A stretch of DNA of 64,000 bases from an uncultured Oscillospiraceae bacterium (GCA_934527315.1 CAKTAK010000004.1:7109-71108); one strand, 5' to 3'. Counted from the stretch's first letter, positions 9,293 through 27,380 are shown. The notes: generated from the letters alone by a model not told the origin. Numbers and translations are program-made.

Positions 9293-10024
9293 TTATATGC
9301 CCAGCCGTTTCACCATATAATCGTGCGCCGCCTGCTCCACGGTGTCGTCCAATGCCGGGAGCACGAACTCCGGATTTTTCCGATGAATGGCCGTGGTCAG
9401 AATGACGTCGGCAAATTCCGGGTTTTTGGGCAGCACCGGACCGTGGCTGTACGTGCCGAATACGTTCAGATACCGCACGCCCTCGCCCTTGTCTTCTCCG
9501 TTGTTGCCGGAGCCGGTGAGCACCTGCCCCAAGGGAGAAACGCCTGCGCCCAGCCATGTTTTGCCGCTGTGGTTTTCAAATCCAACCACCACGCTGCCGC
9601 CGGATTCCGGACCGCAGCGGAAAGCGAAATTGCCAATCATACGTTCTTTTTCGCCCACGGTGGCATAATCAATGGCGCCGATAAAATCGCAGGTTACGCC
9701 GTCCCAAGTGGTATAGCTGCGGCCCAGCATCTGATACCCGCCGCAGATGGTCAGAAAGGTTTTTCCGTCGGCAATGGCGCTTTTGATTTCCGCCGCTTTG
9801 CCCCGATTCAGGTCGCTCAGCAGCACTTCCTGCTCAAAATCCTGCCCGCCGCCGATGAAAAACAAATCATAATCGGCAAAATTCACCGTTTCCCCAATGG
9901 GCACCCGGGTCACTTGGGAGTCAATGCCCCGCCAAGTCAAGCGCTGCTGCAGGCAGCGGATATTGCCGTTGTCGCCGTACAGATTCAGCACGTCCGGATA
10001 CAGATGACAAATTTTCAGTTCCAT
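9293..10024 (-). CDS. gatD: Lipid II isoglutaminyl synthase, glutaminase subunit (CobQ-like glutamine amidotransferase)
   Basis: 243 aa MELKICHLYPDVLNLYGDNGNIRCL.. with a GATase-1 fold. It lies immediately downstream of murT in the conserved pair. Confidence 0.85.
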   Translation of the reverse strand: MELKICHLYPDVLNLYGDNGNIRCLQQRLTWRGIDSQVTRVPIGETVNFADYDLFFIGGGQDFEQEVLLSDLNRGKAAEIKSAIADGKTFLTICGGYQMLGRSYTTWDGVTCDFIGAIDYATVGEKERMIGNFAFRCGPESGGSVVVGFENHSGKTWLGAGVSPLGQVLTGSGNNGEDKGEGVRYLNVFGTYSHGPVLPKNPEFADVILTTAIHRKNPEFVLPALDDTVEQAAHDYMVKRLGI

Positions 10025-10036
10025 GGCTCTGCCTCC

Positions 10037-11401
10037 TTATTCCCAGAATTCCTTGCTGCCGCACAAATGCGCCAGCCGCGTCCGCAAGTCCAGCATTGCC
10101 GTATACGTGGGAATCATATACACCGGCAGGCTCTGCCCGCTCACCTGCTGAATCAGCGCGTCAAAATCCCGCTCCACGCGGATATTTTCCGCCGGGATTC
10201 CCGCGTATTTCAAACGCAGGGCCATATCATCGGCACGAATACCGGAAACAACCACCGGACCGTTGTACTTTTCCGCAAATCGTTCATATTCCGCGTCCCA
10301 AATCCAGGAAATATCCGTGGAATCAGCCGCCTTGTCATTCAGCAGAAATACCGGCAGGAACGTCTGCTCCAAGCCGTTGAGATACTCAAACACCTGATTG
10401 CAGCCCGCCGGGTTTTTCACCAGAATCATACGGATTTCCGTTTCGTTCAGATCGAATTTTTCCATACGTCCGAAGCCGCACCGGAAATTTTCCGCGCAGG
10501 TCAGCGCCGTTTCTCCGTCCAGACCAAAGGACAGCAAAGCGGTAATCGCGCCCACGGCATTGTAAATGTTATACACCGCCGGCAGGTTCACCCGCACCGT
10601 CCGGGTCAGCTCCTCCGTGGCGATTTCCACCGTGGAGCTGTCTGCGTCTTTGCCCAGCATACGGGTTACGGTCACATCGGTTTCCGGCCGGTGATAGCCG
10701 CATTTCGGGCACTCATAATATCCCAAATGGCCGTAAGTACGATATTTGTATACATATTCGGTTTTGCAGCGAATGCAGTGGCTGGCATCGGAAACCGTAG
10801 GTGCCTCGCCGCCGCCCAATGCCTCGCCCAGACCGTAAAATACGCAGACGTTGGGAATATCTCCCGCCAGAGAGGCGGTCAGAGAACAATCCGCATTCAG
10901 ACACACCGTTGCCGTGGGAACTCCCAGAATGCCCTCCCGGATATTGCTCAGAGTATGGGTAATCTCGCCGTAGCGGTCCAGCTGGTCACGGAACAAATTG
11001 GTCACCAGAATGACTTCCGGCTGCACCAGCGGCGCGGTTTTCCGGAACGCCGCCTCGTCACATTCAATGACAGCGCAGGCATGTTTCGGTTTGCCCGTCA
11101 GCGTGGCATTTTCCACCAACAGCGTGGTCACGCCGGACAGCAGGTTGGCGCCGGACCGGTTGGCAAAGTAATCCACCCCCGCGTCAATCAGCCCCTGCTC
11201 CACAATACGGGAACTTGTGGTTTTTCCGTTGGTGCCGGTAACCATAATAATCCGCACGTTTTTTGCCAGCCGCTCCGGCAGACCGGGGTCAACCTTCAGT
11301 GCAAACCGACCGGGCATATCTGTTCCGCCGCGATGCAGTATCTTGGCTGCCAATTTCACGCAGCGGCAGACAATGATTGCAAGAATCGCTCGTAAATTCA
11401 T
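10037..11401 (-). CDS. murT: Lipid II isoglutaminyl synthase, Mur-ligase-like subunit
   Basis: 455 aa from MNLRAILAII.. with the P-loop VTGTNGKTT and a DUF1727 C-terminal region. The longer ORF-track N-terminus is unlikely because it contains no ribosome-binding site or domain. Confidence 0.85.
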   Translation of the reverse strand: MNLRAILAIIVCRCVKLAAKILHRGGTDMPGRFALKVDPGLPERLAKNVRIIMVTGTNGKTTSSRIVEQGLIDAGVDYFANRSGANLLSGVTTLLVENATLTGKPKHACAVIECDEAAFRKTAPLVQPEVILVTNLFRDQLDRYGEITHTLSNIREGILGVPTATVCLNADCSLTASLAGDIPNVCVFYGLGEALGGGEAPTVSDASHCIRCKTEYVYKYRTYGHLGYYECPKCGYHRPETDVTVTRMLGKDADSSTVEIATEELTRTVRVNLPAVYNIYNAVGAITALLSFGLDGETALTCAENFRCGFGRMEKFDLNETEIRMILVKNPAGCNQVFEYLNGLEQTFLPVFLLNDKAADSTDISWIWDAEYERFAEKYNGPVVVSGIRADDMALRLKYAGIPAENIRVERDFDALIQQVSGQSLPVYMIPTYTAMLDLRTRLAHLCGSKEFWE

Positions 11402-13021: not shown

Positions 13022-14701
13022 ATGAAAGAGGAAAAGAAAATTCCGGGGGTTGCCGATGTGAAGAAGTTGAAACACTTCAACATCTACAACCACAACGATG
13101 TACAGTTTGAGCCGACCTTCGTTTCCGTAGGCCGCCAGATTGAGAGCATTGCCCAGACCAAGCCCAACGAAATTGCTGTGATTGAAATTTCTAAGGACGA
13201 TACGGAAGTCAAAACAGCCACTTGGAAAGACCTGTATCTGAAATCCAACCAGCTGGCATGGCTGCTCAAGGAAGAGGGCATCACCAATACCAGCACGGTC
13301 ATGATTTGCCTGCCCAACACCATTGCCCATATTCTCTGCATTTACGCAGCTTGGAAAAACGGCGCCTGCTATCTGCCCATTGCCCCCCGCTCCACAGACG
13401 GGGAAATCGACAACTTCGTGGCCTTGGCAAAACCCGATTTGCTGATTACCGAGGGATATCAGCCGGAAGGCGTTAAGTGCATGACCGTGGAAACTCTGAT
13501 GGAGCGGCTCAACGCTTATTCCGACAAAATGCCCCCCGATATTCTGGCCAATCCCTACCGTGCGCAGACCACCGGCGGCTCCACCGGCAAGCCGAAACTG
13601 ATTCGTTTCACCCGCCCCGCCGGAGAATCCGACGAAAGTCTGATGGCATGGTTCTATATGACCGGTATGTTCTTCGGCTGCCGTCAGCTGATTTGCGGAC
13701 CGATGTTCCACAGCGCACCCGCCTCCGCACTGATTACCGGTCTGTGCTGCGGCAACCGCATTGTGATGCCCAACAACTTCAAGCCCGCTGCCATTGAGCG
13801 GTACATCAAGGATTACGAAATTGAGTGCGTCCAGATGGTGCCCACTCTGATGCACCGTATGCTGAAATTGGATACCTTCAACCCCGAGGACTTCAAGAGC
13901 GTGAAAGCGCTGTCTCACACCGGCGGCTACTGCTCCGCAGAGCTGAAACGGGCATGGATTAACATTCTGGGCGCCAAAAACGTCTACGAAATCTACTCCA
14001 TGAGCGAAATGATCGGTATCACCACCATTCGCGGCGATGAATGGTTGGAGCATCCCGGCAGCGTGGGTCGGCCCTTCGGCGGCTGCAAAATTTCCGTTCG
14101 GGCGGAAGACGGCACGGAGCTGGCGCCCGGCGAAGTGGGCGAGATTTTCATGACCCCCTCCGGCGGCTATCTCCAGACGGAATACATCGGCCGAGAACAG
14201 CTGGCAGACGTGGGCGGCGGATTCCGCAGCGTAGGCGATATGGGCTACGTAGACGATGAGGGCTATCTGTACTTCTCCGACCGGCGGAGCGATATGATTG
14301 TTACCGGCGGTGAAAACGTATTCGCCGTGGACGTGGAAAACGTCTTTATGGAGCACCCGGACATCAACGACATTGTGGTGGTTGGTATCCCCGACCCGGA
14401 ATGGGGCCGTCGGGTTCACGCCGTGGTGGAGGCAAAACGGGAAATGACCTACGACGAATTCCGTCGGTACGGTTGGAAATTCCTGCTCCCCTTTAAGGTT
14501 CCCAAAACCGTTGAGTATGTGGACGCCCTGCCCCGGAAAGACAGCGGCAAAATCAACCGGGCAGAGCTGGCGGAAACCTGCGAAAGATTGCAGAAAGACC
14601 TGGTCAAGCCCTTCGGAATCATCGACACCGGGCTGCGTCAGCTGCTCCGGGAAAGAGCGGCACAGGCAGACGCTGCCGAGGCTGCGGAATCCAAAAAATA
14701 A
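13022..14701 (+). CDS. AMP-dependent synthetase/ligase (acyl-CoA ligase; BaiB/CaiC-like activating enzyme)
   Basis: 559 aa. AMP-binding motif TGGSTGKPK, motif GEIFMTPSGGY, and a C-terminal lysine motif PRKDSGKINRAEL. Confidence 0.85.
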   Translation: MKEEKKIPGVADVKKLKHFNIYNHNDVQFEPTFVSVGRQIESIAQTKPNEIAVIEISKDDTEVKTATWKDLYLKSNQLAWLLKEEGITNTSTVMICLPNTIAHILCIYAAWKNGACYLPIAPRSTDGEIDNFVALAKPDLLITEGYQPEGVKCMTVETLMERLNAYSDKMPPDILANPYRAQTTGGSTGKPKLIRFTRPAGESDESLMAWFYMTGMFFGCRQLICGPMFHSAPASALITGLCCGNRIVMPNNFKPAAIERYIKDYEIECVQMVPTLMHRMLKLDTFNPEDFKSVKALSHTGGYCSAELKRAWINILGAKNVYEIYSMSEMIGITTIRGDEWLEHPGSVGRPFGGCKISVRAEDGTELAPGEVGEIFMTPSGGYLQTEYIGREQLADVGGGFRSVGDMGYVDDEGYLYFSDRRSDMIVTGGENVFAVDVENVFMEHPDINDIVVVGIPDPEWGRRVHAVVEAKREMTYDEFRRYGWKFLLPFKVPKTVEYVDALPRKDSGKINRAELAETCERLQKDLVKPFGIIDTGLRQLLRERAAQADAAEAAESKK

Positions 14702-14747
14702 TTTTTTTCGGTTCCAATTTTTTCAAATTCGTATCGATCTGTTTTTT

Positions 14748-14793
14748 ACACTCCCGAACGGGCCCTGCGCCCGCTCCGGGAGTGTTGCTTTTT
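14748..14793 (+). terminator. Rho-independent terminator after the ligase gene
   Basis: ACACTCCCG-loop-CGGGAGTGT followed by TGCTTTTT. Confidence 0.65.
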
Positions 14794-14958
14794 CCCCTCA
14801 TTTTTCGTAAAATTCTCCCCGGTTTTTACGGATTCTCCGCTGCATTTTTGCAAAATGCCGTTCTTTTGCAGATTGCGCATAAAATAACAAAATCTTCCAT
14901 TTTGAGTGCCAAACCCAATCAGAATACTTATCTTTCTTCAAAAATTGTTCTGAAAAAC

Positions 14959-14987
14959 TTGCTTTTTGTCCGAAAAATTGTTATTAT
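14959..14987 (+). promoter_or_regulatory. Putative promoter for the AraC-family regulator
   Basis: TTGCTT-N17-TATTAT. Confidence 0.4.
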
Positions 14988-15014
14988 TCCAGAAGAAAAA
15001 GGCAGGTGTTCCCC

Positions 15015-16250
15015 ATGATTACCCAAAGAAAAGCCATGCCTCTGTGCGATAAACCGGAATGTGGGATGTTCTCCTCTCCGGATAAGCTGCTGCAGATGCA
15101 AAAACTGACGATTTCAGATCATATCGGTCCGCTGGCGGAAGACGATTCTCTATTCCTTTACGTCACCGGCGGCCGCGGCTACGCAACCATCAACGGCGTG
15201 GTGTTTGACCTGAAACCCGGCTGTTTTCTCTGGCTGCAGTCTTACCATGTCTTCAGCCTGGAATCGGTCTGGGGCGAATCTCTGGAATTAACCGCCATGG
15301 TATATGATTACCCCTTGTCCAGCTATATGACCTTCCGCTCGGACCACACCCGGGACCGGAATCTGTGGGCTTTTGCCTCCTCTCCCCCGGTGTTTCAGTT
15401 GGAAGGTCCCAAACGGGAACGGCTGGAAATGATGCTCCGGGAATTCGAGTTTTACAACAATGACCACGATTCCGGCAGCAATCTGATTAAATGCGCCATT
15501 CTGGGGCAGATGTCCTATTTCTTCTTCGCGCTGTGCGACCAATACCGCAGCCAGTTTCCCTACGTTCGCCATCAATGGCCCATGGGCTGGGTGCTCAGTC
15601 TGTATATTGCTTATTACTGCGCCGAGGATTTGGACCCGAAAGACGTGGCCGACCTGTTCGGCATTAGCGTGGGTACACTGAACCGGGAATTGCGCATCAT
15701 TACTGGTATGAACTTTGCCCAGTCTCTGAACCGCGCCCGGGTCAATCTGGCCGCCGGCGCCATTCTGTTCAGCGAGCTGTCTTTCCACTTTTTGTCCACC
15801 TACTGCGGTTTCCGCTCCGAAGTGGCTTTTTACCGCACGTTCAAGGAGCAGAAAGGCATGACTCCCCAAGAATATCGGGAGTATGCCGTCCACTATACCG
15901 GCGTTCCCCGGAAAATGGTCAGCGAAACCGTGGAACGGATTCTGTACTATATCCACTCCAACTACCGGGAGCAGATCAGCCTGAAATCCATGGCCCAGGA
16001 TTTGTATATCTCCGAGAATATCATCCGCACCCTGCTCCGGGAAAATCTGAACACCAGCTTTAAAGACATTCTCTCCGCCTACCGCATTCGTTATGCCGAG
16101 GCGCTGCTGGTGGTAACGGACCTGCCCATTCTGGATATTTCCTTGGCCTCCGGTTTTAACTCCGAACGGACGTTTACCCGGTTGTTCAAGGACCGAAACG
16201 GCATCACGCCCAGCACCTTCCGGAATCAACACATGAGGGAGACAACATGA
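15015..16250 (+). CDS. AraC-family transcriptional regulator with an N-terminal cupin-like sensor and two complete tandem AraC-type DNA-binding domains
   Basis: 411 aa. First DNA-binding domain: LDPKDVADLFGISVGTLNRELR...STYCGFRSEVAFYRTFKEQKGMTPQEYR. Second DNA-binding domain: ISLKSMAQDLYISENIIRTLLREN...ASGFNSERTFTRLFKDRNGITPSTFR. Confidence 0.85.
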   Translation: MITQRKAMPLCDKPECGMFSSPDKLLQMQKLTISDHIGPLAEDDSLFLYVTGGRGYATINGVVFDLKPGCFLWLQSYHVFSLESVWGESLELTAMVYDYPLSSYMTFRSDHTRDRNLWAFASSPPVFQLEGPKRERLEMMLREFEFYNNDHDSGSNLIKCAILGQMSYFFFALCDQYRSQFPYVRHQWPMGWVLSLYIAYYCAEDLDPKDVADLFGISVGTLNRELRIITGMNFAQSLNRARVNLAAGAILFSELSFHFLSTYCGFRSEVAFYRTFKEQKGMTPQEYREYAVHYTGVPRKMVSETVERILYYIHSNYREQISLKSMAQDLYISENIIRTLLRENLNTSFKDILSAYRIRYAEALLVVTDLPILDISLASGFNSERTFTRLFKDRNGITPSTFRNQHMRETT

Positions 16251-16783
16251 AAAAGCTCAAATACTCCGCACCCTTCGACAGTCGAGATTATTTCACCCAG
16301 AATATTCTCCCCACAGCCATTTTGGCTGACCAGAAAACCATTCGGAAACAGATTCCCTACCGGCAGCATGACGATTTGGAAATTCTTCTGATTCGTCAGG
16401 GCTCCGGCACCATTACGGTCAACGCGGTGGAATACCCCGTCACCCGTGGGGATTTGTTCTGTTTCAGCCCTTATCATTTCCACCGTCTGGACGCGGTGGA
16501 CGGCGACAAGCTGGAGGTTTCCGAGTGCCATGTGAACAGCGGCGTTTACTTTTACGTGACCGCCTGCCCCTACTATCACACGGAGGAAACCACCGCCCTG
16601 CCCTACCCTCATCTGCACGTCAAATTGAGCGAATCCCAGACCCGGCAGGTGGAATATCTGCTGGACGGCATCGCCATGGAAAGCGCCCAGAAAAACATTC
16701 AGGAGAATCAATCCTGTTTCTTCCTGCTGATGAAACTGTTCGGCATTGTGGAGCGCTGTGCCGTAAAGCCGGACGCAGACTGA
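16247..16783 (+). CDS. Stand-alone cupin protein (AraC-type ligand-binding-like), translationally coupled to the regulator
   Basis: 178 aa. Its ATG overlaps the araC-like stop (ATGA). Cupin-like motifs HDDLEILLIRQGSG..GDLFCFSPYHFH. No helix-turn-helix. Confidence 0.7.
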   Translation: MKKLKYSAPFDSRDYFTQNILPTAILADQKTIRKQIPYRQHDDLEILLIRQGSGTITVNAVEYPVTRGDLFCFSPYHFHRLDAVDGDKLEVSECHVNSGVYFYVTACPYYHTEETTALPYPHLHVKLSESQTRQVEYLLDGIAMESAQKNIQENQSCFFLLMKLFGIVERCAVKPDAD

Positions 16784-16861
16784 ATTCTGGGATTTTTGCT
16801 CAGATTTTTCATGAAAATTCTAAGGAAAACGTCAAAAATATAACGCCCCGGACTTTTATGC

Positions 16862-16890
16862 TTGACTTCCATCTGGACTGTTGATATCAT
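16862..16890 (+). promoter_or_regulatory. Sigma-A promoter for SDR gene 1
   Basis: TTGACT-N17-TATCAT. Confidence 0.55.
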
Positions 16891-16907
16891 TGCTGTTTGA
16901 TGATATC
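16883..16907. promoter_or_regulatory. Perfect inverted repeat (candidate operator) overlapping the -10 and transcription start of the SDR-1 promoter
   Basis: GATATCAT-N9-ATGATATC. Confidence 0.4.
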
Positions 16908-16995
16908 TATTGTTTTTCTGTAAAAAACATGGGGCGGTCAAGCTGTCTGCCCCGCATTTTCCCATATTGCACGATTGATTGGAGGAGGCTTACCC

Positions 16996-17751
16996 ATGGG
17001 ACATCATTTGATGGATGGTAAAACTGTCTTTCTGACAGGTGGAGCCGGAGGAATCGGATTTGCAACTGCTCGTCTGATGTTGGAAGAGGGCGCGCAGGCT
17101 GTTTTAATCACGGATCTGAACGAGGAAGTAACCACAAAGGCTGCCGAAAAGCTGAAAAGCGAGTTCCCCGGCCGGAACATTGAGGCCGCTTGGCCCAATT
17201 TGGGCAGCGAAGAAGAAATCGGTGCCGTAATGCGCGCCTTTGCGGAAAAATACGGAAAGCTGGACGCTGTGCTGTCCATTGCCGGTATTACCCATAACAC
17301 GACCATCAAGCGGATGCAGCCCGGTGAGTTTCTCCGTCAGGTGGACGTGAACCTGATTGACACCTACAATGTGGACCGGCAGGCCGGTCTGATTATGCGC
17401 GAGCAGCGGTTCGGTTCCATTGTGAACACCAGCTCCATCTGCGGTCTGTACGGCAACCCCATGGGCTGCGGTTACGGCGCATCGAAAGCCGGTGTGATCG
17501 GTCTGACCAAGTCTTTGGGCCGCGAGCTGGGCTACTTCAATGTCCGGGTCAACTGCGTTGCGCCCGGCGCAATCCGCACCCCCATGACCGCAAACCTTTC
17601 CAAAGAGGCGCAGGCTGCCGCAGTGGCTAACATTGCGCTGCGCCGCATCGGCGAGCCGGAAGAAGTTGCAAACGTTTTTCTGTTCCTGGCCTCCGATTTG
17701 TCCACCTACTGCACCGCCTCGGTTTACAACGTGGACGGTTTTTCCATCTGA
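16996..17751 (+). CDS. Short-chain dehydrogenase/reductase (classical SDR, BaiA/FabG-like), paralog 1
   Basis: 251 aa. TGGAGGIG Rossmann motif, catalytic YGASK, and C-terminal EPEEVANVFLFLASDLSTY. A GGAGGAGG ribosome-binding site is present. Confidence 0.85.
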   Translation: MGHHLMDGKTVFLTGGAGGIGFATARLMLEEGAQAVLITDLNEEVTTKAAEKLKSEFPGRNIEAAWPNLGSEEEIGAVMRAFAEKYGKLDAVLSIAGITHNTTIKRMQPGEFLRQVDVNLIDTYNVDRQAGLIMREQRFGSIVNTSSICGLYGNPMGCGYGASKAGVIGLTKSLGRELGYFNVRVNCVAPGAIRTPMTANLSKEAQAAAVANIALRRIGEPEEVANVFLFLASDLSTYCTASVYNVDGFSI

Positions 17752-17806
17752 AAAACGCCGGAAACCCTTGAAAAATAAGGAGTTTTTACGTATATTCTAT
17801 AAGGAC

Positions 17807-17844
17807 AATGCCGCAGATAGAACATATCTGCGGCATTGTTTTTA
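17807..17844 (+). terminator. Rho-independent terminator after SDR-1
   Basis: AATGCCGCAGAT-loop-ATCTGCGGCATT followed by GTTTTTA. Confidence 0.75.
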
Positions 17845-17891
17845 TTCACTATGCACAATTTTTGACAATCTGATTTAAGCAAAACGATTTC

Positions 17892-17920
17892 TTGACTTCC
17901 TGCACACAGCGTGATAATAT
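17892..17920 (+). promoter_or_regulatory. Sigma-A promoter for SDR gene 2
   Basis: TTGACT-N17-TAATAT. Confidence 0.55.
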
Positions 17921-17980
17921 TAACAACAAGAGCGAATGATTCACACTACGCTACTGAATTATTGATTGGAGGAAATTCAC

Positions 17981-18763
17981 ATGGAAAACATGATGAAGGG
18001 CAAGAACGTATTTATTACCGGCGGTTCCCGCGGTATCGGTTTTGCCACCGCAAGAGAAATGCTGAAGGAAGGCGCTAACGCAGTTGCTATCTGCAGCCAC
18101 TTTGAGGAAACCCGCGAGGCCGCTCTGGCTAAGCTGAACGAGGAGTTCCCCGGCCGCAACATCGTTGGCTACACCTTCGATCTGGCTACCTGCACCGAGG
18201 CTGAAATCGATGCATGCATGAAAGACTTCATTGCTAAGTTCCCCAACGAGGAAGGCAAGCAGCATCTGGACGCTGTCTGCTCCATCGCTGGTATCACCCA
18301 CAACAACACCTGCAAGAACATCCCCGAGGGTCTGTTCGAAGAGGTCGTTCGCGTCAACCTGATCGGCACCTGGTACGTTGACCACTGCGCTTGCAACATC
18401 ATGCGCGGCCAGAAGTACGGCGCTATCGTGAACACCGCTTCCATCGCTGGTGTGTACGGCTCCTCCATGGGTGCTGGCTACGGCGCTTCCAAGGGCGGCG
18501 TTGTTGGTCTGACTCGTTCTCTGGGCCGTGAGATGGCTTACTTCAACGTTCGCGTGAACGCTATCTGCCCGGGCGTTGTGAAGACCGACATGGTTATGAA
18601 GGACACCTCCGAGGCTGCTATCAAGTACGTGTGCCAGGGCATTGCTATGCACCGTATGGGCGAGCCCGAAGAGCTGGCTAAGATGTTCGTGTTCCTGTCC
18701 TCCGATGCTTCCAGCTACTGCGAAGCAGGCATCTACCACTGCGACGGCTGGACCACCGGCTGA
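17981..18763 (+). CDS. Short-chain dehydrogenase/reductase, paralog 2 (strong highly-expressed-type codon bias)
   Basis: 260 aa. TGGSRGIG, YGASK, EPEELAKMFVFLSSDASSY. A GGAGGA ribosome-binding site is present. Codon usage is dominated by gct/acc/atc/aag/ttc/tac, as in the ribosomal genes of this window. Confidence 0.85.
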   Translation: MENMMKGKNVFITGGSRGIGFATAREMLKEGANAVAICSHFEETREAALAKLNEEFPGRNIVGYTFDLATCTEAEIDACMKDFIAKFPNEEGKQHLDAVCSIAGITHNNTCKNIPEGLFEEVVRVNLIGTWYVDHCACNIMRGQKYGAIVNTASIAGVYGSSMGAGYGASKGGVVGLTRSLGREMAYFNVRVNAICPGVVKTDMVMKDTSEAAIKYVCQGIAMHRMGEPEELAKMFVFLSSDASSYCEAGIYHCDGWTTG

Positions 18764-18789
18764 TATTGCACTCAATATCGAAATTTTCA

Positions 18790-18816
18790 GGACCCGGTTT
18801 TACCGGGTCCTTTTTT
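18790..18816 (+). terminator. Rho-independent terminator after SDR-2
   Basis: GGACCCGG-tttta-CCGGGTCC followed by TTTTTT. Confidence 0.8.
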
Positions 18817-18906
18817 ATTGCTTTCAGCCATCTTTAACAATATATTATTTTTGTCAAATGTACAAAATTCACAAAAAATATTGACACTTTTCTGATTATC
18901 TTACTC

Positions 18907-18935
18907 TTGACATTTAGTTGTCAAAAAGGTATCAT
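18907..18935 (+). promoter_or_regulatory. Sigma-A promoter for CoA-transferase 1, with the -35 embedded in a TTGACA-N6-TGTCAA inverted repeat
   Basis: TTGACA-N17-TATCAT. Further TGTCAA/TTGACA half-sites lie at about 18852 and 18881. Confidence 0.55.
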
Positions 18936-19050
18936 AACATAGTCGGAATCAATTTGGAGAGTGATTCCTCTTACTTGTTAAATTACCGGAGTTCGTTTCC
19001 GGACGAGCTGTGGCTGTTTAAAAGACATATTGAAAGGAAGTTATGTTGTA

Positions 19051-20409
19051 ATGAACGTTAAAGTGATTAACAACGCACTGCATCAGAAATTCAATGAGTA
19101 CCCCGGTTTCGGTGTTCTGGAAGGCGTGAAAGTTCTCGTCACCGGCACTAACATCGCTGGCCCCTTCGCAGGCTGCCTGATGGCTGAAATGGGCGCAAAG
19201 GTTGTCCAGGCTGAGGCTCCCAACATCCTGTGCCAGACCCGTGGTACCACCGCTTGGTCTCAGAACCACAGAAACGAATACTCCATCACTCTGAACACTG
19301 CTACCGCTCGCGGCAAAGAAGTGTTCCTGAAGGCTATCGAGTGGGCAGACATCTGGATCGAGGCTGGCCGTCCCGGTGGCTACGAGAAACGCGGCTTGTC
19401 CGACGAAGTGTGCTGGGAGCACAACAAAAAGCTGGCTATTGTCCACGTTTCCGGCTACGGCCAGTTCGGCCCCGCTAAGGACAAGGCTTCCTACGACGTT
19501 TCCGGCCAGGCAATGGGCGGCTACATGTACATGAACGGTGTCAGCCCCACTTCCGGCATGCTGAAAGTGAACCCCTACCTGTCCGACTACGTAACCGCTT
19601 ACAACGCTTGCATCGTGGCTCTGGCTGGCTACATCCATGCTAAGAACTTCGGCGAAGGCGATTCCTGCGACGTTGCTCAGTACGACACCATGTTCCGTCT
19701 GCTGGATAACTACCCCGCAGTGTGGTTCAACAAAGGCTATCCCAAACAGGGCGAGCCCGTTCCCTTCCGTACCGGTAACAAGAGCGACCAGGCTTGCTGC
19801 TTCTCCTTCTATGACACCAAAGACGGCGGCGCAATGTTCGTTGCTATCGTTGGCCAGGGCCCTGTGACCCGCGGCTACCCCATCATCGGCATGGGCACCC
19901 CCGGTGTCGATCCCGAAATCCCCGCAGCCTGCACCGGTTTCCCCCTGTTCGATCCTCGCGGCCAGAAGGCTGAGGCTCTGATCACCAAGTTCTGCGCAGA
20001 GCGTACCTGCGACGAGCTGGAAGAGATCTTCACCAAGGCCGGCATCCCCTGCCAGAGAGCTTACACCCCCGCTGACATCGAGAAGGATACTCAGTACGAG
20101 GCACGTGAGAACATCGTTGAGTGGGACGACCAGGTGTTCGGACCCATGAAGGGCATTGGCTGCACTAACATCTTCAAGAAACACCCCTCTCAGATCGTTG
20201 CTTCCGCTCCTACCTTCGGCGAGCACAACCGCGAGTTCCTGGAGTCTCTGGGTTACTCCGCAGCAGAGATCGACGAGATGTATGCTAAGAAGGAAATGGT
20301 CACCATGACCGCTGCTGACACCGCTGTCGTGAAGAACCTGGCAGCTTGGGGCTTCTTCTGGGATCCCAAACGTCAGAGCGAGCGTCTGGGTCTGGAGTTC
20401 AAGGGCTAA
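19051..20409 (+). CDS. Family III (CaiB/BaiF-type) acyl-CoA transferase, paralog 1 (highly-expressed-type codon bias)
   Basis: 452 aa. NIAGPFAG, WADIWIEAGRPGGYEKRGLSDEVCWEHNKKLAIVHVSGYGQFGP, GDSCDVAQYD, PFRTGNK. Shares AAGGAAG ribosome-binding site context with paralog 2. Confidence 0.9.
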   Translation: MNVKVINNALHQKFNEYPGFGVLEGVKVLVTGTNIAGPFAGCLMAEMGAKVVQAEAPNILCQTRGTTAWSQNHRNEYSITLNTATARGKEVFLKAIEWADIWIEAGRPGGYEKRGLSDEVCWEHNKKLAIVHVSGYGQFGPAKDKASYDVSGQAMGGYMYMNGVSPTSGMLKVNPYLSDYVTAYNACIVALAGYIHAKNFGEGDSCDVAQYDTMFRLLDNYPAVWFNKGYPKQGEPVPFRTGNKSDQACCFSFYDTKDGGAMFVAIVGQGPVTRGYPIIGMGTPGVDPEIPAACTGFPLFDPRGQKAEALITKFCAERTCDELEEIFTKAGIPCQRAYTPADIEKDTQYEARENIVEWDDQVFGPMKGIGCTNIFKKHPSQIVASAPTFGEHNREFLESLGYSAAEIDEMYAKKEMVTMTAADTAVVKNLAAWGFFWDPKRQSERLGLEFKG

Positions 20410-20438
20410 TCCTTTCTCCAACCAACAGAATTTTACAA

Positions 20439-20469
20439 GGACCGCAGTTTTTGCTGCGGTCCTTTTTTT
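20439..20469 (+). terminator. Rho-independent terminator after CoA-transferase 1
   Basis: GGACCGCAG-tttttg-CTGCGGTCC followed by TTTTTTT. Confidence 0.8.
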
Positions 20470-20586
20470 GTGTTTCCGGGAACGGACATTTTCGGGGAAA
20501 TGTCTGCGTAACCAACATATTGCCATATTCTTAGTTCATACTGCACAAGAATATTTCTGTTTTTTGAGCGGTTTTTGAATTAGTTG

Positions 20587-20615
20587 TTGACATTGACATT
20601 GAAATAACATATAAT
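20587..20615 (+). promoter_or_regulatory. Perfect consensus sigma-A promoter for CoA-transferase 2 (tandem -35 hexamers)
   Basis: TTGACATTGACA ... TATAAT. The first TTGACA is exactly 17 nt from TATAAT. Confidence 0.65.
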
Positions 20616-20674
20616 CAATACAAGCTTTTGGAAGGAAGCTCTTGCAAAACTTAAATTGAAAGGAAGTCATTGCC

Positions 20675-22039
20675 ATGAAAGTATTCAATAATGCTCTGCA
20701 TCAGGATTTTGCAGCTTACCCCCAGTTCGGTGTCCTCCGCGGCGTAAAAGTTTTTATTACCGCTACTAATATTGCCGGTCCTTTCGCCGGTTCTCTGATG
20801 GCCGAAATGGGCGCACAGGTTCTGCGTGCAGAGCATCCGAAAATTGCCTGCTCCACCCGTGGCACAACTGCTTGCTCTCAGCTGCACAGAAACGAGTACT
20901 CCATCACTCTGAACGCAGCAACTGCCCGCGGTAAAGAAGTATTTCTGAAGGCAATTGAATGGGCTGATATTTGGATCGAGGCCGGTCGTCCCGGCGGTTA
21001 TGAGAAACGCGGTCTGTCCGATGAAGTTTGCTGGGAGCACAACAAAAAGCTCTCCATCGTGCACGTTTCCGGTTATGGTCAGTTTGGTCCTTACAAAGAC
21101 AAGGCTTCCTATGACGTATCTGGCCAGGCAATGGGCGGCTACATGTACATGAACGGCGTGAACCCCACTTCCGGTCCTTTGAAAGTCAACCCCTATCTGT
21201 CTGACTATGTGACTGCATACAACGTATGCATTGCTGCAATGGCAGGCCACATCCACGCACTGAAGTACGGCGAAGGCGACTCCTGCGACGTTGCTCAGTA
21301 TGATAACATGTTCCGTCTGCTGGATAACTATCCCGCAGTGTGGTTCAACAAGGGCTATCCCAAAGCAGGCGAGCCCGTTCCCTTCCGCAGCGGCAACAAG
21401 CACGACAGCTCTGCAGGTTTCTCCTTCTACAACACCAAAGACGGCGGCGCAATGTTCGTTGCTATCGTTGGTCAGGGTCCTGTGGAACGCGGATTCCCCA
21501 TCATCGGCATGCCCGCCCCCGGCAGCGGTGAAAAGGTTCCCGGTCTGGACATGGTCGTTGACGCACGTTGCACCGGCTACCCCATCTTCGATCCTCGCGG
21601 TCAGGTAGAAGAAAAGCTGATCGAGCAGTTCTGCGCAGAGCGCACCTGCGATGAGCTGGAGAAGATCTTCACCGAAGCCGGTATCCCCTGCCAGAGAGCT
21701 TACACGCCCGCTGATATCGAGAAGGATCCTCAGTACGAGGCACGTGAGAACATCGTGGAATGGGACGACCAGGTATTCGGACCCATGAAGGGCATTGGTT
21801 TGACCAACATCTTCAAACGGAACCCCTCCGACATCGTTGCATCTGCACCTCTGTTCGGCGAGCACAACCGCGAGGTTCTGTCTGCTTGGGGCTTCTCCGA
21901 TGCTGATATCGACGATATGTACGCTAAGGGCGAGCTGGAAAGCTGGACCGCAGCCGATACCGCACGGAACAAGATGCTGAAAGAGTGGGGCTTCTTCTGG
22001 GATCCCGAGCGTCAGGCAAAGCGCATCGGTCTGGAGTAA
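20675..22039 (+). CDS. Family III (CaiB/BaiF-type) acyl-CoA transferase, paralog 2
   Basis: 454 aa, about 75-80% identical to paralog 1 at the protein level, but with many synonymous differences (more ggt/tat/gat/ttt codons). Confidence 0.9.
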   Translation: MKVFNNALHQDFAAYPQFGVLRGVKVFITATNIAGPFAGSLMAEMGAQVLRAEHPKIACSTRGTTACSQLHRNEYSITLNAATARGKEVFLKAIEWADIWIEAGRPGGYEKRGLSDEVCWEHNKKLSIVHVSGYGQFGPYKDKASYDVSGQAMGGYMYMNGVNPTSGPLKVNPYLSDYVTAYNVCIAAMAGHIHALKYGEGDSCDVAQYDNMFRLLDNYPAVWFNKGYPKAGEPVPFRSGNKHDSSAGFSFYNTKDGGAMFVAIVGQGPVERGFPIIGMPAPGSGEKVPGLDMVVDARCTGYPIFDPRGQVEEKLIEQFCAERTCDELEKIFTEAGIPCQRAYTPADIEKDPQYEARENIVEWDDQVFGPMKGIGLTNIFKRNPSDIVASAPLFGEHNREVLSAWGFSDADIDDMYAKGELESWTAADTARNKMLKEWGFFWDPERQAKRIGLE

Positions 22040-22082
22040 TTTCCCCTCCGCTGTATCAAACAGTCAACAATTGAATACCAAA

Positions 22083-22116
22083 ATTCCCTGCAGTGCTGCT
22101 GCAGGGAATTTTTTTG
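22083..22116 (+). terminator. Rho-independent terminator after CoA-transferase 2
   Basis: ATTCCCTGCAG-tgctg-CTGCAGGGAAT followed by TTTTTTT. Confidence 0.8.
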
Positions 22117-22200
22117 CCTTCGATGGGGATTTCTCTCTTTTATCATTGTCGAATTTGTGATACAGTAGCACTATTCTCGAAAATTGGAGCTGTAAGCCGC

Positions 22201-23544
22201 ATGGAACACGATTTGACCTCCGGAAAGGTATTTCCCACGCTGATTTCTTTCTCTATTCCCTACCTCATATCCTATTTTCTCCAAACCCTGTACGGTATGG
22301 CGGATTTGTTCATCATCGGCCGATTCTGCGCCGTAGAGGCAACCACCGCTGTTTCCATCGGCAGTCAAGTGATGCACATGCTCACGGTCATGATTGTGGG
22401 CCTTGCTATGGGAACCACCGTAAAAATCGGTCATGCCATCGGCAGCGGCGACCGCAGTGAAGTCAACCGCATCATCGGCAATACGGTTGTTCTCTTTGCC
22501 GGTATCGCCGTGGTTTCTCTGGTGTTGCTGTCGAGGTACGTGCGGCCCATCGTTTCTCTGATGTCCACCCCGGAAGAGGCTGCGGTGGGAACGGTAAATT
22601 ACCTGCTGATTTGTTTCATCGGGATTCCCTTTGTGATGGCATATAATATCATCAGCTCTATTTTCCGCGGGTTGGGCGATTCCAAAACACCTATGTACTT
22701 CGTGACCATTGCCTGCGTGGTGAATATTCTGCTGGACTATCTGTTCATCGGCGGGTGTGGTCTGGGTCCCGCCGGCGCCGCTTTGGGAACGACCCTTGCC
22801 CAAGGCGTGAGCGTCATTCTGGCTTTGATTTACATTCGGAAAATGAACAAAATCTCCGGGTTTTCCCGGGCGGATTTCCGCCCCCAAAAGGAAACGCTCC
22901 TGCCCATTTTGCAGGTCGGAATCCCCGTAGCCGCGCAAGACGGATTGATTCAGATTTCCTTCCTCCTCATCACCGTTTTTGCCAACCTCCGCGGTCTGAC
23001 CGATGCAGCCGCCGTGGGCATTGTGGAGAAGATTATCAGCTTTCTGTTTTTGATTCCCTCCTCCATGCTCTCCGCTGTATCGGCGCTGGCTGCTCAGAAT
23101 ATCGGTGCCGGAAAGCATGACAGGGTCCGTTTGACCCTGCAATATGCGCTGTGCATCGCCGTGGGCATGGGCTTTGTTTGGGTGATTCTGATGCAATTTG
23201 CCGCAGATTCCGCAGTTGCGCTGTTTACCAAAGACCCGACAGCCATTGCCATGGGCGGCGAGTATATGCGGGGCTACGTTTGGGATTGCGTGTTCGCCGG
23301 GATTCATTTCTGCTTTAGCGGATATTTCTGCGCTTACGGAAAATCGTGGATTTCCTTTCTCCAGAACATTCTCTCCATTGTCCTTGCCCGGGTGCCGTTG
23401 GCATGGTATACCGCAAGATTTTGCTTGGACAGCCTTTTTCCCATGGGTCTGGCTGCTCCCGCCGGCTCCCTGCTGTCGGTGGTCGTTTGCCTGATTGCCT
23501 ACAAGCTGCTACGGAAGAACTCCCCGGAATTGCAGGGAAAATAA
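22201..23544 (+). CDS. MATE-family efflux transporter
   Basis: 447 aa from MEHDLTSGKVFPTLISFSIPYLISYFLQTLYGMADLFIIGRF. About 12 transmembrane helices. The ORF-track start at 22093 is upstream of the terminator and is unlikely. Confidence 0.8.
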   Translation: MEHDLTSGKVFPTLISFSIPYLISYFLQTLYGMADLFIIGRFCAVEATTAVSIGSQVMHMLTVMIVGLAMGTTVKIGHAIGSGDRSEVNRIIGNTVVLFAGIAVVSLVLLSRYVRPIVSLMSTPEEAAVGTVNYLLICFIGIPFVMAYNIISSIFRGLGDSKTPMYFVTIACVVNILLDYLFIGGCGLGPAGAALGTTLAQGVSVILALIYIRKMNKISGFSRADFRPQKETLLPILQVGIPVAAQDGLIQISFLLITVFANLRGLTDAAAVGIVEKIISFLFLIPSSMLSAVSALAAQNIGAGKHDRVRLTLQYALCIAVGMGFVWVILMQFAADSAVALFTKDPTAIAMGGEYMRGYVWDCVFAGIHFCFSGYFCAYGKSWISFLQNILSIVLARVPLAWYTARFCLDSLFPMGLAAPAGSLLSVVVCLIAYKLLRKNSPELQGK

Positions 23545-24035: not shown

Positions 24036-25253
24036 TCAAATCAACAAACCGTAACGATTCACCAACGGCAGCAACTCCTCTTCCGACAAGCCGCCCTCGT
24101 ACAGCGCCCGACCCTGATACACCCGCAACGCAGCCTCCAACAGGTCTGCGCTGTCGCAAACCAGACACAGCGGTTTGGAAAACAGATACTGCACGTCCGC
24201 CAATGCGTCCACGTCTTCCCAGCTGTCAACCGCCACAGCCACCATAGGGAATCCGTCCTCCATGGCGTCGGTCAAATCCTCTTCCAACGTGTCGCTGCAC
24301 CGGAGCACCGGACCGTGGTCTGCATCTACCGGAAGGCAGAACACCTGCTTTTCCGTGGCAGCGGTGAGCTCGTCCGTATGCATGGGTGCGGGAGGTACAA
24401 ATTCCGCCCCCTCCAATGCCCGATTCAGTGCCGCAAGGTGGGTTGCGTCGGTGCCGCAGCAGCCGCCGAAGAATCCCACACCGGCAGCCAACATCTCCGG
24501 CACATACGAGGCAAACTTCTCCGGCGGGAAGTTGTAAACCGCTTTTCCCTCCGACATATCCGGCAGACCGGCATTGGGTTTTGCCATCAGTGGCACCCGG
24601 GCAAATTCCCGCAGCCGCTGCACCTGCACCACCATCGTTCCGATATCCGACAGGCAGTTCAAGCCGAAAGCGTCTACCCCCATGCCCTGGAGCACCGTCA
24701 GCGCTGCGGTCACGTCCGTACCGGACAGACTCCGTCCGTTTTCATCGCAGGTAAAGGACACCAAAATGGGTTTATCGGACACGCTGCGCACCGCCAACAC
24801 CGCTGCCCGGGCATCGGGCAGGGTCATCATGGTTTCAATCACGAACAAGTCCACCCCCGCTGATGCAAGTCCCGCAGCCTGTTCCGTGTAAATATCCACC
24901 AATTCTTCAAACGAGGCGGTGCCCATGGGAGAAAGGAACAGTCCCGTGGGCGCAATGTCCCCCGCAATCCATGCGCTGTTTCCCAAAGCCGACCGGCTCA
25001 AACCCACCAGACGGGCATTGTACTCCTCGGTTTGATTAAATATGCCCCGCTCCTCCAATTTCTGCCGATTGGCGCCGAATGTGGGCGCGTAAACAATGCG
25101 GCTGCCGGCTGCCACATAACTCTGCTGAATCTCTGCCAGCGCCGCCGGGTGCTCCAACAGCCATTGCTCCGTGCTAATCTCGCCGGTATATCCCCGGACC
25201 TGCGCCGCGGTACCCATGGCGCCGTCCAATAGAACGGGAAAACGCAATTCCAT
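24036..25253 (-). CDS. Homocysteine S-methyltransferase-family (zinc/thiol methyltransferase) protein with an extra C-terminal region of about 110 aa
   Basis: MELRFPVLLDGAMGT.. with the zinc motif FFGGCCGTDATH. A GGAGGA ribosome-binding site is present. It lies 4 nt downstream of the RACo gene. Confidence 0.8.
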   Translation of the reverse strand: MELRFPVLLDGAMGTAAQVRGYTGEISTEQWLLEHPAALAEIQQSYVAAGSRIVYAPTFGANRQKLEERGIFNQTEEYNARLVGLSRSALGNSAWIAGDIAPTGLFLSPMGTASFEELVDIYTEQAAGLASAGVDLFVIETMMTLPDARAAVLAVRSVSDKPILVSFTCDENGRSLSGTDVTAALTVLQGMGVDAFGLNCLSDIGTMVVQVQRLREFARVPLMAKPNAGLPDMSEGKAVYNFPPEKFASYVPEMLAAGVGFFGGCCGTDATHLAALNRALEGAEFVPPAPMHTDELTAATEKQVFCLPVDADHGPVLRCSDTLEEDLTDAMEDGFPMVAVAVDSWEDVDALADVQYLFSKPLCLVCDSADLLEAALRVYQGRALYEGGLSEEELLPLVNRYGLLI

Positions 25254-25271
25254 GCCTGATTCCTCCAAACT

Positions 25272-26774
25272 TCAAAATGTCATTGATTCCGTAAAGGCGT
25301 CCGTAAAAGCCGGATTGCCCGAAAGTTCCAAATAGCTGCACTGCCGTGCAATTTCCTGCAATTTTCCGCCGTATTGACGGTCCAGTGCCACCATGGACGC
25401 ACCGGCTAAAGCCGTGTTGCCCAAAGTGCGGCAGCGGTCCGCCAACGCCCGGGGCAGCATACCGATTGCCGCCGCGCTGTCGGGGTCCATATAGCTGCCA
25501 AAACCCCCGGCCAGATACAGCCCGTCCACCTGCTCCGGGGAGATGCCCCGCTGCCGGAGCAGCACCTGAATCCCGCCGGCTACCGCGGCTTTTGCCAGCT
25601 GCAAATTCCGCACGTCCTCCGCCGTAAGATACACCTCCGGCGTCAGATAAAACCGTCCGTTGCCATGGTCATCGGATTCCACATAACGGCGGGCCGCCGC
25701 CGGAACTTCGTCTTTCGGCAGCAGCCGCCCGCTCTCGTCAATGATTCCCAGCTGCCGCAGCTGCGCTGCCAAATCCAGCAGACCGGAGCCGCAAATGCCC
25801 TTTGCCGTACCACCGCCGATGACTTCATACAGAAATCCCCGGTCATACCGCACCCGGCTCACCGCACCGGAAATGCCCGGCATGCCGCAGGTGATGCCCG
25901 CGCCCTCAAACGCCGGACCGGAGGCCACAGCACAGCAGGAAAATCCCTCTTTCCCGCCCAAAGCCATTTCTCCGTTGGTGCCGATGTCCAAAAAGAGGAA
26001 GTTGCCGGATTTCTCATACAATCCCGAGACCAGCAGACCGGCTGTAATGTCGCCGCCCACGTACCCCGCCACGCAGGGCGCATAGGTCAGCGGCACTCCG
26101 CAAAGTGTTTCCCCCCGGGGCGTATCAAACAGCGTTTCCGGGTGAAAGGGCGCTGCCGCGATTCCCGTCACGGGCAATCCGGCAAACAAATGCTGCATCA
26201 CCGTATTCCCCGCCACCACGATTTCCTGCAATTCATGGACGGATTCCCCTCCGCGGGTCAGAATGTCTTCCAACAGCTGCCAGACCTGCGCCCGAATTTT
26301 TTCGGACAGCTCTTCCAAGCCGCTTTCCCGCTCCATGGTGTACTGAATCCGGCTGATGACATCGCCGCCGTAAGGCGCCTGCAGGTTCCATGCACCTCTT
26401 TCGCCCAAAAGGGCGCCGGTTGCCCGGTCATACACCCGGACTGCCACTGTGGTGGTTCCCAAATCCACCGCCGCGCCCCAGCCGGTTCTCCCCGGTTCAC
26501 ATGAAGGCAGGGCAACGGTTTCCGTCAAAATAACACCGCCCATAGATGCGGGCAGGTCAATCACATCTCCCCCTTTGGGAATCAGCTTGCAGGCCAATCG
26601 GGGTACACCGTTCACCGGAACCCGGCATTTTCCGCACCGCCCCCGGCCGCCGCAAGCCGCCGGAATGGAGTATCCCGCGCTCCGCAGCACCGACAGCAGC
26701 GTTTCTCCCTCTTCCAACGGCACAAGCCGGATTTCACTCCCCTGCCGAACCTGAATACTTGACACGAACACCAC
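25272..26774 (-). CDS. Reductive activator of corrinoid protein (RACo/RamA-like): N-terminal 2Fe-2S ferredoxin plus ASKHA ATPase domain
   Basis: 500 aa. The cysteine cluster CGGRGRCGKCRV..C matches a plant-type ferredoxin. ASKHA motifs DLGTTTV and DIGTNGE are present. Confidence 0.8.
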   Translation of the reverse strand: MVFVSSIQVRQGSEIRLVPLEEGETLLSVLRSAGYSIPAACGGRGRCGKCRVPVNGVPRLACKLIPKGGDVIDLPASMGGVILTETVALPSCEPGRTGWGAAVDLGTTTVAVRVYDRATGALLGERGAWNLQAPYGGDVISRIQYTMERESGLEELSEKIRAQVWQLLEDILTRGGESVHELQEIVVAGNTVMQHLFAGLPVTGIAAAPFHPETLFDTPRGETLCGVPLTYAPCVAGYVGGDITAGLLVSGLYEKSGNFLFLDIGTNGEMALGGKEGFSCCAVASGPAFEGAGITCGMPGISGAVSRVRYDRGFLYEVIGGGTAKGICGSGLLDLAAQLRQLGIIDESGRLLPKDEVPAAARRYVESDDHGNGRFYLTPEVYLTAEDVRNLQLAKAAVAGGIQVLLRQRGISPEQVDGLYLAGGFGSYMDPDSAAAIGMLPRALADRCRTLGNTALAGASMVALDRQYGGKLQEIARQCSYLELSGNPAFTDAFTESMTF

Positions 26775-26843
26775 CCGCCAATATAATGAATGTAAATTTC
26801 ATTTTACGCAGAAACCAATCGGATTGTCAAGAGGCATCGAACC

Positions 26844-27380
26844 ATGGAAGAAATTCTGAAACTGGCCCGGGAGAACGGTTTTACCCACTTCGGCCCGGTG
26901 AATTACGGCGCACTGATTCCCCTGCCGGAGGTACGGGATATGTGCGCAGCAGACCGCTGCGGGAAATACGGGAAAAGCTGGTCCTGCCCGCCGGCCTGCG
27001 GAACCTTGCAGGAGGCATCGGCGGCCATTGCCCGGTATTCCCGCGGGGTTCTGGTGCAAACCACGGGCGCGCTGTCCGATTCCTTTGATTATGACGGTAT
27101 GACCGCCCTTTCCCAAGCCCATCGGCAGCGCTTTTCCAACTTTGCCCGGCAGGTGCGGTTTCTGTTTCCGGATTGCCTGCCCCTGACTGCCGGTGCCTGC
27201 AATCTCTGCAAAAAATGTACCTATCCCGGAAAGCCCTGCCGGTTCCCGGACAAGCGGTTGGCCTCTATGGAGGCTTACGGGCTGTTTGTCAGCGATATCT
27301 GCGTCCAATCCGGGCTGCAATACAATTACGGTCCCAACACTTTGACGTACACATCTTGTGTGCTGTTTTCCGAGAGGTGA
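26844..27380 (+). CDS. DUF2284-type predicted metal-binding protein (Cys-rich)
   Basis: 178 aa with CGKYGKSWSCPPAC..CNLCKKC..C. Proteins of this family are typically found beside corrinoid methyltransferase genes. Confidence 0.65.
   Translation: MEEILKLARENGFTHFGPVNYGALIPLPEVRDMCAADRCGKYGKSWSCPPACGTLQEASAAIARYSRGVLVQTTGALSDSFDYDGMTALSQAHRQRFSNFARQVRFLFPDCLPLTAGACNLCKKCTYPGKPCRFPDKRLASMEAYGLFVSDICVQSGLQYNYGPNTLTYTSCVLFSER

Follow-up and report, generated by a model that had tools for sequence, protein, structure and literature searches.

Can bile-acid-inducible (bai) genes form a working unit of their own, apart from the pathway of 7-dehydroxylation? This question is raised by a gene cluster at positions 13022-23544 of a 64 kb stretch of DNA (the window), which is part of a contig of ~265 kb from an uncultured Oscillospiraceae bacterium of the gut. 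By homology, three activities of the bile-acid pathway (ligation, C-3 dehydrogenation and coenzyme A (CoA) transfer) are encoded at this locus, as is the regulator pair of that pathway; the locus encodes neither the dehydration nor the ene-reduction. We give about an even chance to the reading that the cluster is a chromosomal stand-alone bai variant, serving as a module for redox chemistry at C-3 of bile-acid CoA thioesters and not for 7-dehydroxylation. The products would be 3-oxo or iso bile acids.

The cluster was found to contain eight consecutive open reading frames (ORFs) on the plus strand, and the family of each was confirmed with Pfam and NCBIfam. The genes are as follows, where W stands for the window type of locus, SDR for short-chain dehydrogenase/reductase, CoAT for CoA-transferase and aa for amino acids.

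13022..14701, plus strand: BaiB-family bile acid-CoA ligase of the W clade, 559 aa, AMP-binding (Pfam, NCBIfam)
15015..16250, plus strand (ORF from 15006): BarA-type AraC regulator, 411 aa, N-terminal cupin and two tandem HTH_18 domains (Pfam)
16247..16783, plus strand: BarB-type stand-alone cupin, 178 aa (Pfam AraC_binding and Cupin_2)
16996..17751, plus strand (ORF from 16975): SDRa, BaiA-family, 251 aa (BaiA2, 4IS2, as best solved match)
17981..18763, plus strand (ORF from 17966): SDRb, BaiA-family, 260 aa (BaiA2, 4IS2, as best solved match)
19051..20409, plus strand (ORF from 19030): CoAT1, family III CoA-transferase of the Oscillospiraceae 'BaiF' type, 452 aa (PF02515)
20675..22039, plus strand: CoAT2, tandem paralogue of CoAT1, 454 aa (PF02515)
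22201..23544, plus strand (ORF from 22093): MATE-family transporter (Pfam MatE, TIGR00797)

An earlier interpretation, made without database searches (the sequence-only reading), had counted seven genes, and this count was wrong, as eight were listed in its own text and in the ORF list. The families that it named, and the placement of the genes side by side on one strand, agreed with the ORF list, Pfam and NCBIfam. The peptide motifs that it quoted were all present; PFRTGNK was found in CoAT1 only, and CoAT2 reads PFRSGNK. Five starts were shifted to ATG codons with Shine-Dalgarno sites, namely those of AraC (15015), SDRa (16996), SDRb (17981), CoAT1 (19051) and MATE (22201). The AraC start at 15015 matches the 411-aa NCBI gene call on an identical contig. 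In the ORF list, MATE begins at a GTG (22093) that falls within the terminator hairpin that follows CoAT2 (22080..22118), so the start at 22201 is likely.

Related loci were collected by ligase-alignment scans of GTDB species genomes and metagenome contigs, which returned at least ~120 canonical bai loci and a handful of the window type. The architecture groups were based on trees, as secondary ligase matches and truncated contigs confound a grouping by gene order. Three gene orders were obtained (genes in brackets are not always present).

Type I: cupin and AraC (divergent), BaiB-BaiCD-BaiE-(BaiA)-BaiF-BaiG-BaiH
Type II: BaiE and BaiCD (opposite strand), BaiH-AraC-cupin-BaiA-BaiB-BaiG-CoAT-(CoAT)
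Window type (W): ligase, AraC-cupin, SDR(s), (CoAT-CoAT)

Affiliation of the enzymes and regulators

By its sequence, the window ligase is a member of the BaiB family and forms a basal third clade of it (W). It scored 667.7 bits on the NCBIfam model NF038344 for BaiB (cut-off 650), with residues 17-520 of 559 covered, against 150.7 bits on the CaiC model. The best solved relative was 4LGC, the 'Bile acid-coenzyme A ligase' of C. scindens (521 bits, E=2e-155), and the runner-up was FadD13 with 158 bits. The BaiB of C. hylemonae is 48% identical to the window ligase. In the neighbour-joining tree, the W ligases formed a clade with a bootstrap value of 100, types I and II were joined at 90, and the three together were separated from the outgroup at 100. 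The W ligases share 48% identity with each of the two canonical clades; these two share 50% with one another, and the outgroup ligases are 35% identical. The BaiB/CaiC role expected by the sequence-only reading was thus borne out by the model, the structure and the tree, and sharpened to the BaiB family. The W ligases also contain a C-terminal extension of ~40 aa (residues ~521-559, consensus ...LVxPFGxIxTGLRxxLR...), which is absent from the canonical BaiBs of ~507 aa.

The affinity of the ligase bears on the alternative that the same chemistry is applied to another substrate, which may be a host-specific or allo/iso bile acid, a non-bile steroid acid or some other hydroxy-acid. The ligase and the SDRs are 37-48% identical to characterised enzymes and stand in clades of their own, the ligase carries the extra tail, and the BaiB cut-off was passed narrowly (667.7 against 650). 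However, the transferases are ~80% identical to those in complete bai loci, the regulator pair was, in our set of loci, confined to those of the bai type, and the identity is down to 35% for the closest outgroup ligases. We regard another substrate as improbable on balance.

For both SDRs, the best solved match was BaiA2 (4IS2), with E=4.6e-52 for SDRa and E=2.4e-46 for SDRb, ahead of all FabG entries. An identity with FabG of fatty-acid synthesis was rejected: the best FabG model gave 230.9 bits for SDRa and 185.4 bits for SDRb, where the cut-off is 296, and no FabG cut-off of NCBIfam was reached. The BaiA-type assignment of the two SDRs was thereby upheld. The catalytic N-S-Y-K tetrad was kept in 15 of the 15 W SDRs. 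In a tree built from bai-locus SDRs only, the W clade, which has a bootstrap value of 100, was found among the BaiA-position SDRs; its sister position to type I BaiA has a support of only 62% in this tree, which contains no non-bai SDR as outgroup.

SDRa and SDRb are 54-56% identical to each other (54% for the window pair) and arose by a lineage-specific duplication. They differ systematically in the position that discriminates between cofactors, which lies where strand beta-2 ends. The SDRa orthologues always contain an Asp at this position, in the motif (I/V/L)TD(L/I)NE (VLITDLNE in the window), whereas the SDRb orthologues contain AICSH(Y/F)(D/E)ET (AICSHFEET in the window). SDRb shares its loop with the BaiA proteins of type II (FLSHYEET), one of which has been shown to make 3-oxo-cholyl-CoA in vitro with NAD+. 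A second SDR clade with the Asp is also present in canonical loci. This systematic difference indicates that the pair is not a simple redundancy; it may concern the cofactor, the direction, the substrate or the stereochemistry. The earlier suggestion that the two SDRs and the two transferases serve two stereochemistries or two substrates is still speculative. A further SDR ('SDR3', cofactor loop VYMACRN/D) was found after the transferases in the W locus L005 (15514-16308) and also in type I loci, for example L004 (10253-11050); the copy of L005 is 74.5% identical to the SDR that follows BaiF in the type I loci of Oscillospiraceae.

In the two transferases, PF02515 was matched over its full length (1-366 of 366), and the Asp of PYLSDY (PYxxDY motif) lines up with the Asp of PYTADY in CaiB; from the chain numbering, this residue would correspond to Asp169 of CaiB. 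CoAT1 and CoAT2 nest within the type II 'BaiF' clade of the tree. Their identity to the transferases encoded in complete type II bai loci is 73-82% (up to 82% for CoAT1 and 76% for CoAT2), against only ~43-45% for type I BaiF. The value for CoAT1 refers to the type II transferase that follows BaiB/BaiG. The two window copies are 79% identical to each other (nonsynonymous divergence, dN, 0.14; synonymous divergence, dS, 0.81), and CoAT1 is as close to type II transferases (up to 82%) as to its own neighbour (79%).

CaiB, the L-carnitine CoA-transferase, was the best solved structure and the best curated model for the transferases, yet the scores on NF002914 (260.3 and 264 bits) stayed below the cut-off of 413. 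The formyl-CoA/oxalate transferase Frc was also rejected, with 112-122 bits on TIGR03253 and NF003809 against cut-offs of 442-504. Of the CaiB/BaiF assignment in the sequence-only reading, family III membership and the BaiF type of type II loci stood, and the CaiB part did not. The analogy with carnitine metabolism adds nothing.

The AraC protein contained HTH_18 twice and a weak N-terminal match to AraC_binding, and it is 46% identical to the AraC that is divergent from a canonical bai operon (L002/L004). For the stand-alone cupin, the identity was 29% (E=1.5e-22) with the 181-aa protein that accompanies that canonical AraC, and 32% with the N-terminal cupin domain of its own neighbour, the window AraC. 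The AraC and cupin genes overlap by 4 nucleotides (nt) and are translationally coupled. Kim et al. (2022) named the AraC and cupin genes of the Oscillospiraceae bai cluster barA and barB (PMC9426597). In our study, each canonical bai locus that we examined, whether of type I or of type II, was accompanied by a pair of this AraC/cupin type. The AraC and cupin trees each contained three clades in which W was separate, and the W AraC proteins are 36-40% identical to those of types I and II. The dedicated AraC regulator that had been proposed is, by homology, one half of a barA/barB-type bai regulator pair, and transcription is probably bile-acid-responsive through this pair.

Additional divergent AraC and cupin pairs were found in three type II loci (L016, L017 and L024), upstream of the bai core and beside another CoA-transferase and SDR. 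In L024, one extra pair adjoins a ligase that is only 34% identical to the window ligase. There seem to be further CoA-dependent modules under BarA/BarB control beside bai loci.

Conservation of the cluster and absence of dehydroxylation genes

The W cluster was found in at least nine loci, on independent contigs and in other species. The short form (L006, L009 and L089) contained the ligase, AraC, cupin and one SDR, and the long form contained in addition the second SDR and the two transferases. L005 carries a third SDR at its end, two copies of SDRb were found in L008 and L010, and MATE was present in the window only. The genes DUF3878, radical SAM and SNF, which follow the short form, are syntenic in three loci and absent from the window; they look like neighbourhood and were not taken as members.

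Species with ligases of 73-86% identity were found to share the gene order. All ORFs were intact in every W locus, and the dN/dS ratios of ~0.07-0.23, at saturated dS, point to purifying selection on all genes. These data bear on the alternative that the cluster is a decaying bai remnant or a chance adjacency without joint function. In favour of it, genes of the core pathway are lacking, and the accessory genes (MATE, a third SDR, an extra copy of SDRb) differ from locus to locus. Intact ORFs with kept catalytic residues, the low dN/dS at saturated dS and the conserved order argue against it, and we consider it very improbable. That the adjacency is not incidental was also the expectation of the sequence-only reading, and it agrees with the order kept across species, with transferases that score below the Frc cut-offs and with SDRs that score below those of FabG.

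The transferases nest in type II while the ligase, SDRs and regulators form separate clades, which makes the cluster a mosaic. To a core of ligase, regulators and one SDR, which is old, the duplicated second SDR and the transferases of 7-dehydroxylating relatives would have been added later. Such an origin fits the existence of the short form without transferase and the lower dS of SDRb than of the ligase. In comparisons of the window with L005, L007 and L008, the dS of SDRb was 0.5-0.9, against 1.6-2.6 for the ligase, AraC and SDRa in the same pairs. The low values of SDRb hint at recent exchange or gene conversion between lineages.

The genes for dehydroxylation were searched with a complete Oscillospiraceae bai locus (L002/L004), which was reached through its ligase of 52% identity. 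No tblastn match with E<1e-5 to BaiCD, BaiE, the BaiH-like flavoenzyme, BaiG or the MFS transporter was found in the 64 kb window, and the flanks of eight related loci contained no BaiCD, BaiE, BaiH or BaiG either. The lack of BaiCD, BaiH and BaiE, on which the cluster had been called non-canonical from the start, was thus confirmed for the window. A locus without BaiE and BaiCD/BaiH cannot by itself remove the 7-hydroxyl group. In the three GTDB species with a W ligase, no second, canonical BaiB was found among the matches listed; these metagenome-assembled genomes (MAGs) are incomplete.

A full 7-alpha-dehydroxylator with a split regulon is another explanation. In such an organism, BaiCD, BaiE and BaiH would be encoded elsewhere in the genome, and the cluster would contribute ligation, 3-oxidation and CoA transfer, all of which are bona fide steps of the pathway. 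In C. scindens, baiA1/3, baiJKL and baiN are likewise found outside the operon (PMC10936602), dispersed and partial Bai modules are already known from MAG surveys (PMC13477222), and our search covered 64 kb of the genome. However, BaiB adjoined or lay near BaiCD/BaiE in every canonical locus examined (at least ~120, types I and II), at least nine W loci occupy the same housekeeping neighbourhood without BaiCD, BaiE or BaiH, and the ligase, SDRs and regulators form separate clades and are not orthologues of the pathway genes. A split regulon therefore seems to us unlikely.

The inclusion of the MATE exporter in the system was not supported. No homologue with E<1e-10 was found in 167 related loci, and the gene stands behind a strong terminator. 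Its position is occupied by a third SDR in L005 and by unrelated genes in L008.

Transcription units and chromosomal surroundings

The following promoter-like and terminator-like elements were found between the genes, with the folding energy from RNAfold for the hairpins. The promoter-like sites come near the consensus (TTGAC[TA]-17-TAT[CA]AT).

14748..14795, plus strand: terminator-like hairpin and T-run after the ligase, -24.8 kcal/mol
16862..16890, plus strand: promoter-like TTGACT-17-TATCAT before SDRa
17807..17846, plus strand: terminator hairpin and T-run after SDRa (inverted repeat I1), -21.3 kcal/mol
17892..17920, plus strand: promoter-like TTGACT-17-TAATAT before SDRb
18789..18819, plus strand: terminator hairpin and T-run after SDRb, -18.2 kcal/mol
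18860..18935, plus strand: promoter region of CoAT1, with the block GTACAAAN4ACAAA followed by TTGACA-17-TATCAT
20437..20472, plus strand: terminator hairpin and T7 after CoAT1, -21.6 kcal/mol
20587..20615, plus strand: promoter-like TTGACA-17-TATAAT, a perfect consensus, before CoAT2
22080..22118, plus strand: terminator hairpin and T7 after CoAT2, -21.7 kcal/mol

A single operon was ruled out by this row of separate promoter and terminator units; only AraC-cupin looks bicistronic. The AraC-cupin unit was followed by a weak hairpin only, whereas all other units of the window contained a strong terminator. The intergenic gaps in the window are 160-310 nt, against 30-140 nt in canonical bai operons. 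Promoters of the TTGACT/TATCAT type were also found before most SDR and transferase genes of L005 and L008, with hairpins after several units, in a less complete form. The GTACAAAN4ACAAA block upstream of the CoAT1 promoter was conserved among orthologues, and this was the only promoter with such a block. The alignment of the cupin-SDRa intergenic region from eight loci contained no conserved block. A candidate operator, TTTTCTGGAAATGG, which stands before some promoters of L005 and L008, was absent from the window cluster at up to 3 mismatches. No riboswitch or leader was found in the long 5' untranslated regions between 12.7 and 23.8 kb with Rfam at the gathering thresholds.

The upstream flank contained genes for an LRR/TPR protein, PrmA, GatD, MurT and a PdaC-like protein, and these flanking genes (LRR protein, PrmA, GatD, MurT, PdaC-like) are syntenic in relatives. 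The downstream flank contained a corrinoid methyltransferase set followed by a tRNA array, and a ribosomal-protein superoperon was present ~18 kb further downstream. The GC content of the cluster is that of its surroundings, and a scan of flanking sequence gave no integrase or transposase. The cluster had been described as an island, and in the mobile sense this term does not hold, given the GC content without shift, the scanned flanks without integrase or transposase, and the synteny of the flanks in relatives.

Two ordinary chromosomal features, the tRNA array (Cys, Gly, Phe, Val) at 30321-30741 on the minus strand and an S10-Clostridia ribosomal leader at 57270-57351 on the minus strand, mark the window as core genome. 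The corrinoid-dependent set at 24036-29126 contained a PF02574 methyltransferase (minus strand), a RACo reductive activase with a 2Fe-2S domain (minus strand) and a URO-D/B12-binding fusion (plus strand), which suggests methyl-group (demethylation) metabolism. A stop-free ORF of 1356 aa at 44379-48449 (plus strand) had no Pfam match. The minus strand carries map, adk and secY of the ribosomal-protein superoperon exactly opposite to it, and this strikingly long ORF is almost certainly a spurious antisense frame. Another ORF without a Pfam match, of 707 aa at 9272-11395 (plus strand), is antisense to the real minus-strand genes GatD and MurT and is spurious. The gene at 34582-35847 (plus strand) contained the Hexokinase_1 and Hexokinase_2 domains of Pfam, that is, the eukaryote-type hexokinase fold and not the usual ROK glucokinase of bacteria.

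A proposed route at C-3 and its meaning

Among the closest known systems is the type II locus. The bai genes of the uncultured Clostridiales UBA11811 and its relatives were reported in the order baiE, baiCD / baiH, barA, barB, baiA, baiB, baiG, baiF, baiF (PMC9426597). Like the window, this locus contains homologues of barA, barB, baiA and baiB and two tandem baiF genes, with the regulators before the SDR and the transferases last. However, the window contains no baiE, baiCD, baiH or baiG, and its ligase lies upstream of the regulators. The identities between the two are 48% for the ligase, 37% for the SDRs, 36% for AraC and 29% for the cupin, in separate clades, and type II forms an operon with gaps of 30-140 nt, whereas the window is made of separate promoter/terminator units.

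The type I operon baiBCDEA2FGHI, known from C. scindens, C. hylemonae, Peptacetobacter hiranonis and Extibacter muris as the Hylemon-Bjorkhem pathway, shares with the window BaiB, BaiA, a family III transferase and AraC with cupin. The window differs from it in lacking the dehydratase, the flavoenzymes and BaiG, and its regulators are co-directional, whereas those of type I are divergent. The iso-bile-acid route of Eggerthella lenta and Ruminococcus gnavus uses paired 3-alpha- and 3-beta-hydroxysteroid dehydrogenases on free bile acids, with no ligase or CoA-transferase; what it has in common with the window is the predicted net chemistry, in which two dehydrogenases oxidise C-3 and reduce it again. 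The cai system of E. coli has the same logic of a ligase (CaiC) and a family III CoA-transferase (CaiB), and the window lacks its CaiA, CaiD and CaiT.

For the stand-alone C-3 module that we prefer, the following route is proposed. The ligase would form the first bile-acyl-CoA thioester with ATP. The SDRs would interconvert the 3-hydroxy and 3-oxo forms on the thioester, possibly with inversion to the 3-beta epimer. SDRb, with the loop of biochemically validated BaiA, and SDRa, with the classical Asp loop, would have distinct roles. The tandem transferases would then move CoA from the product to an incoming bile acid, by which the 3-oxo or iso acid would be freed and ATP saved. Each enzyme gene would be expressed from its own promoter/terminator unit. 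In its most specific form, the proposal is a self-contained CoA-thioester route for C-3 oxidation or epimerisation, run by a third BaiB/BaiA/BarA/BarB clade with a captured BaiF, in which the reduction of 3-oxo bile acids may also serve as an electron sink. This form is offered tentatively, and we hold it to be possible but doubtful.

Several points weigh against the stand-alone module. In L006, L009 and L089, the short form does without a transferase, so the core function does not depend on CoA recycling. Any stereochemistry ascribed to either SDR would be conjecture. The ligase is 48% and the SDRs are 37-42% identical to characterised BaiB and BaiA, and the specificity for substrate or position could differ. 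BaiCD, BaiE and BaiH could lie beyond the 64 kb inspected. In addition, no operator motif common to all units was found in the cluster.

What is already known is the occurrence of partial Bai modules, and what is new is the W cluster, with its third BaiB/BaiA/BarA/BarB clade and its mosaic origin, of which no description was found in full-text literature searches. Gene surveys often gauge the potential for 7-dehydroxylation from counts of baiB, baiA and baiF homologues. The window ligase passes the NCBI cut-off for BaiB, so it would presumably be annotated as BaiB and the cluster counted as 7-dehydroxylation potential. Scoring the W cluster as bai-positive could inflate such estimates, as the defining dehydratase and flavoenzymes are absent from the locus.

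Uncultured Oscillospiraceae are thought to dominate the formation of secondary bile acids, and 3-oxo and iso bile acids signal to host immunity and to competitors such as C. difficile. If the cluster works alone, these bacteria would make or consume 3-oxo or iso bile acids in a CoA-dependent manner, and this would be a new bile-acid pathway, distinct from the Hylemon-Bjorkhem pathway and from CoA-independent epimerisation by hydroxysteroid dehydrogenases. The three paralogous clades of BaiB, BaiA and BarA/BarB provide a natural experiment for mapping the specificity for substrate and effector, and the cluster illustrates the modular assembly of the bile-acid pathway.

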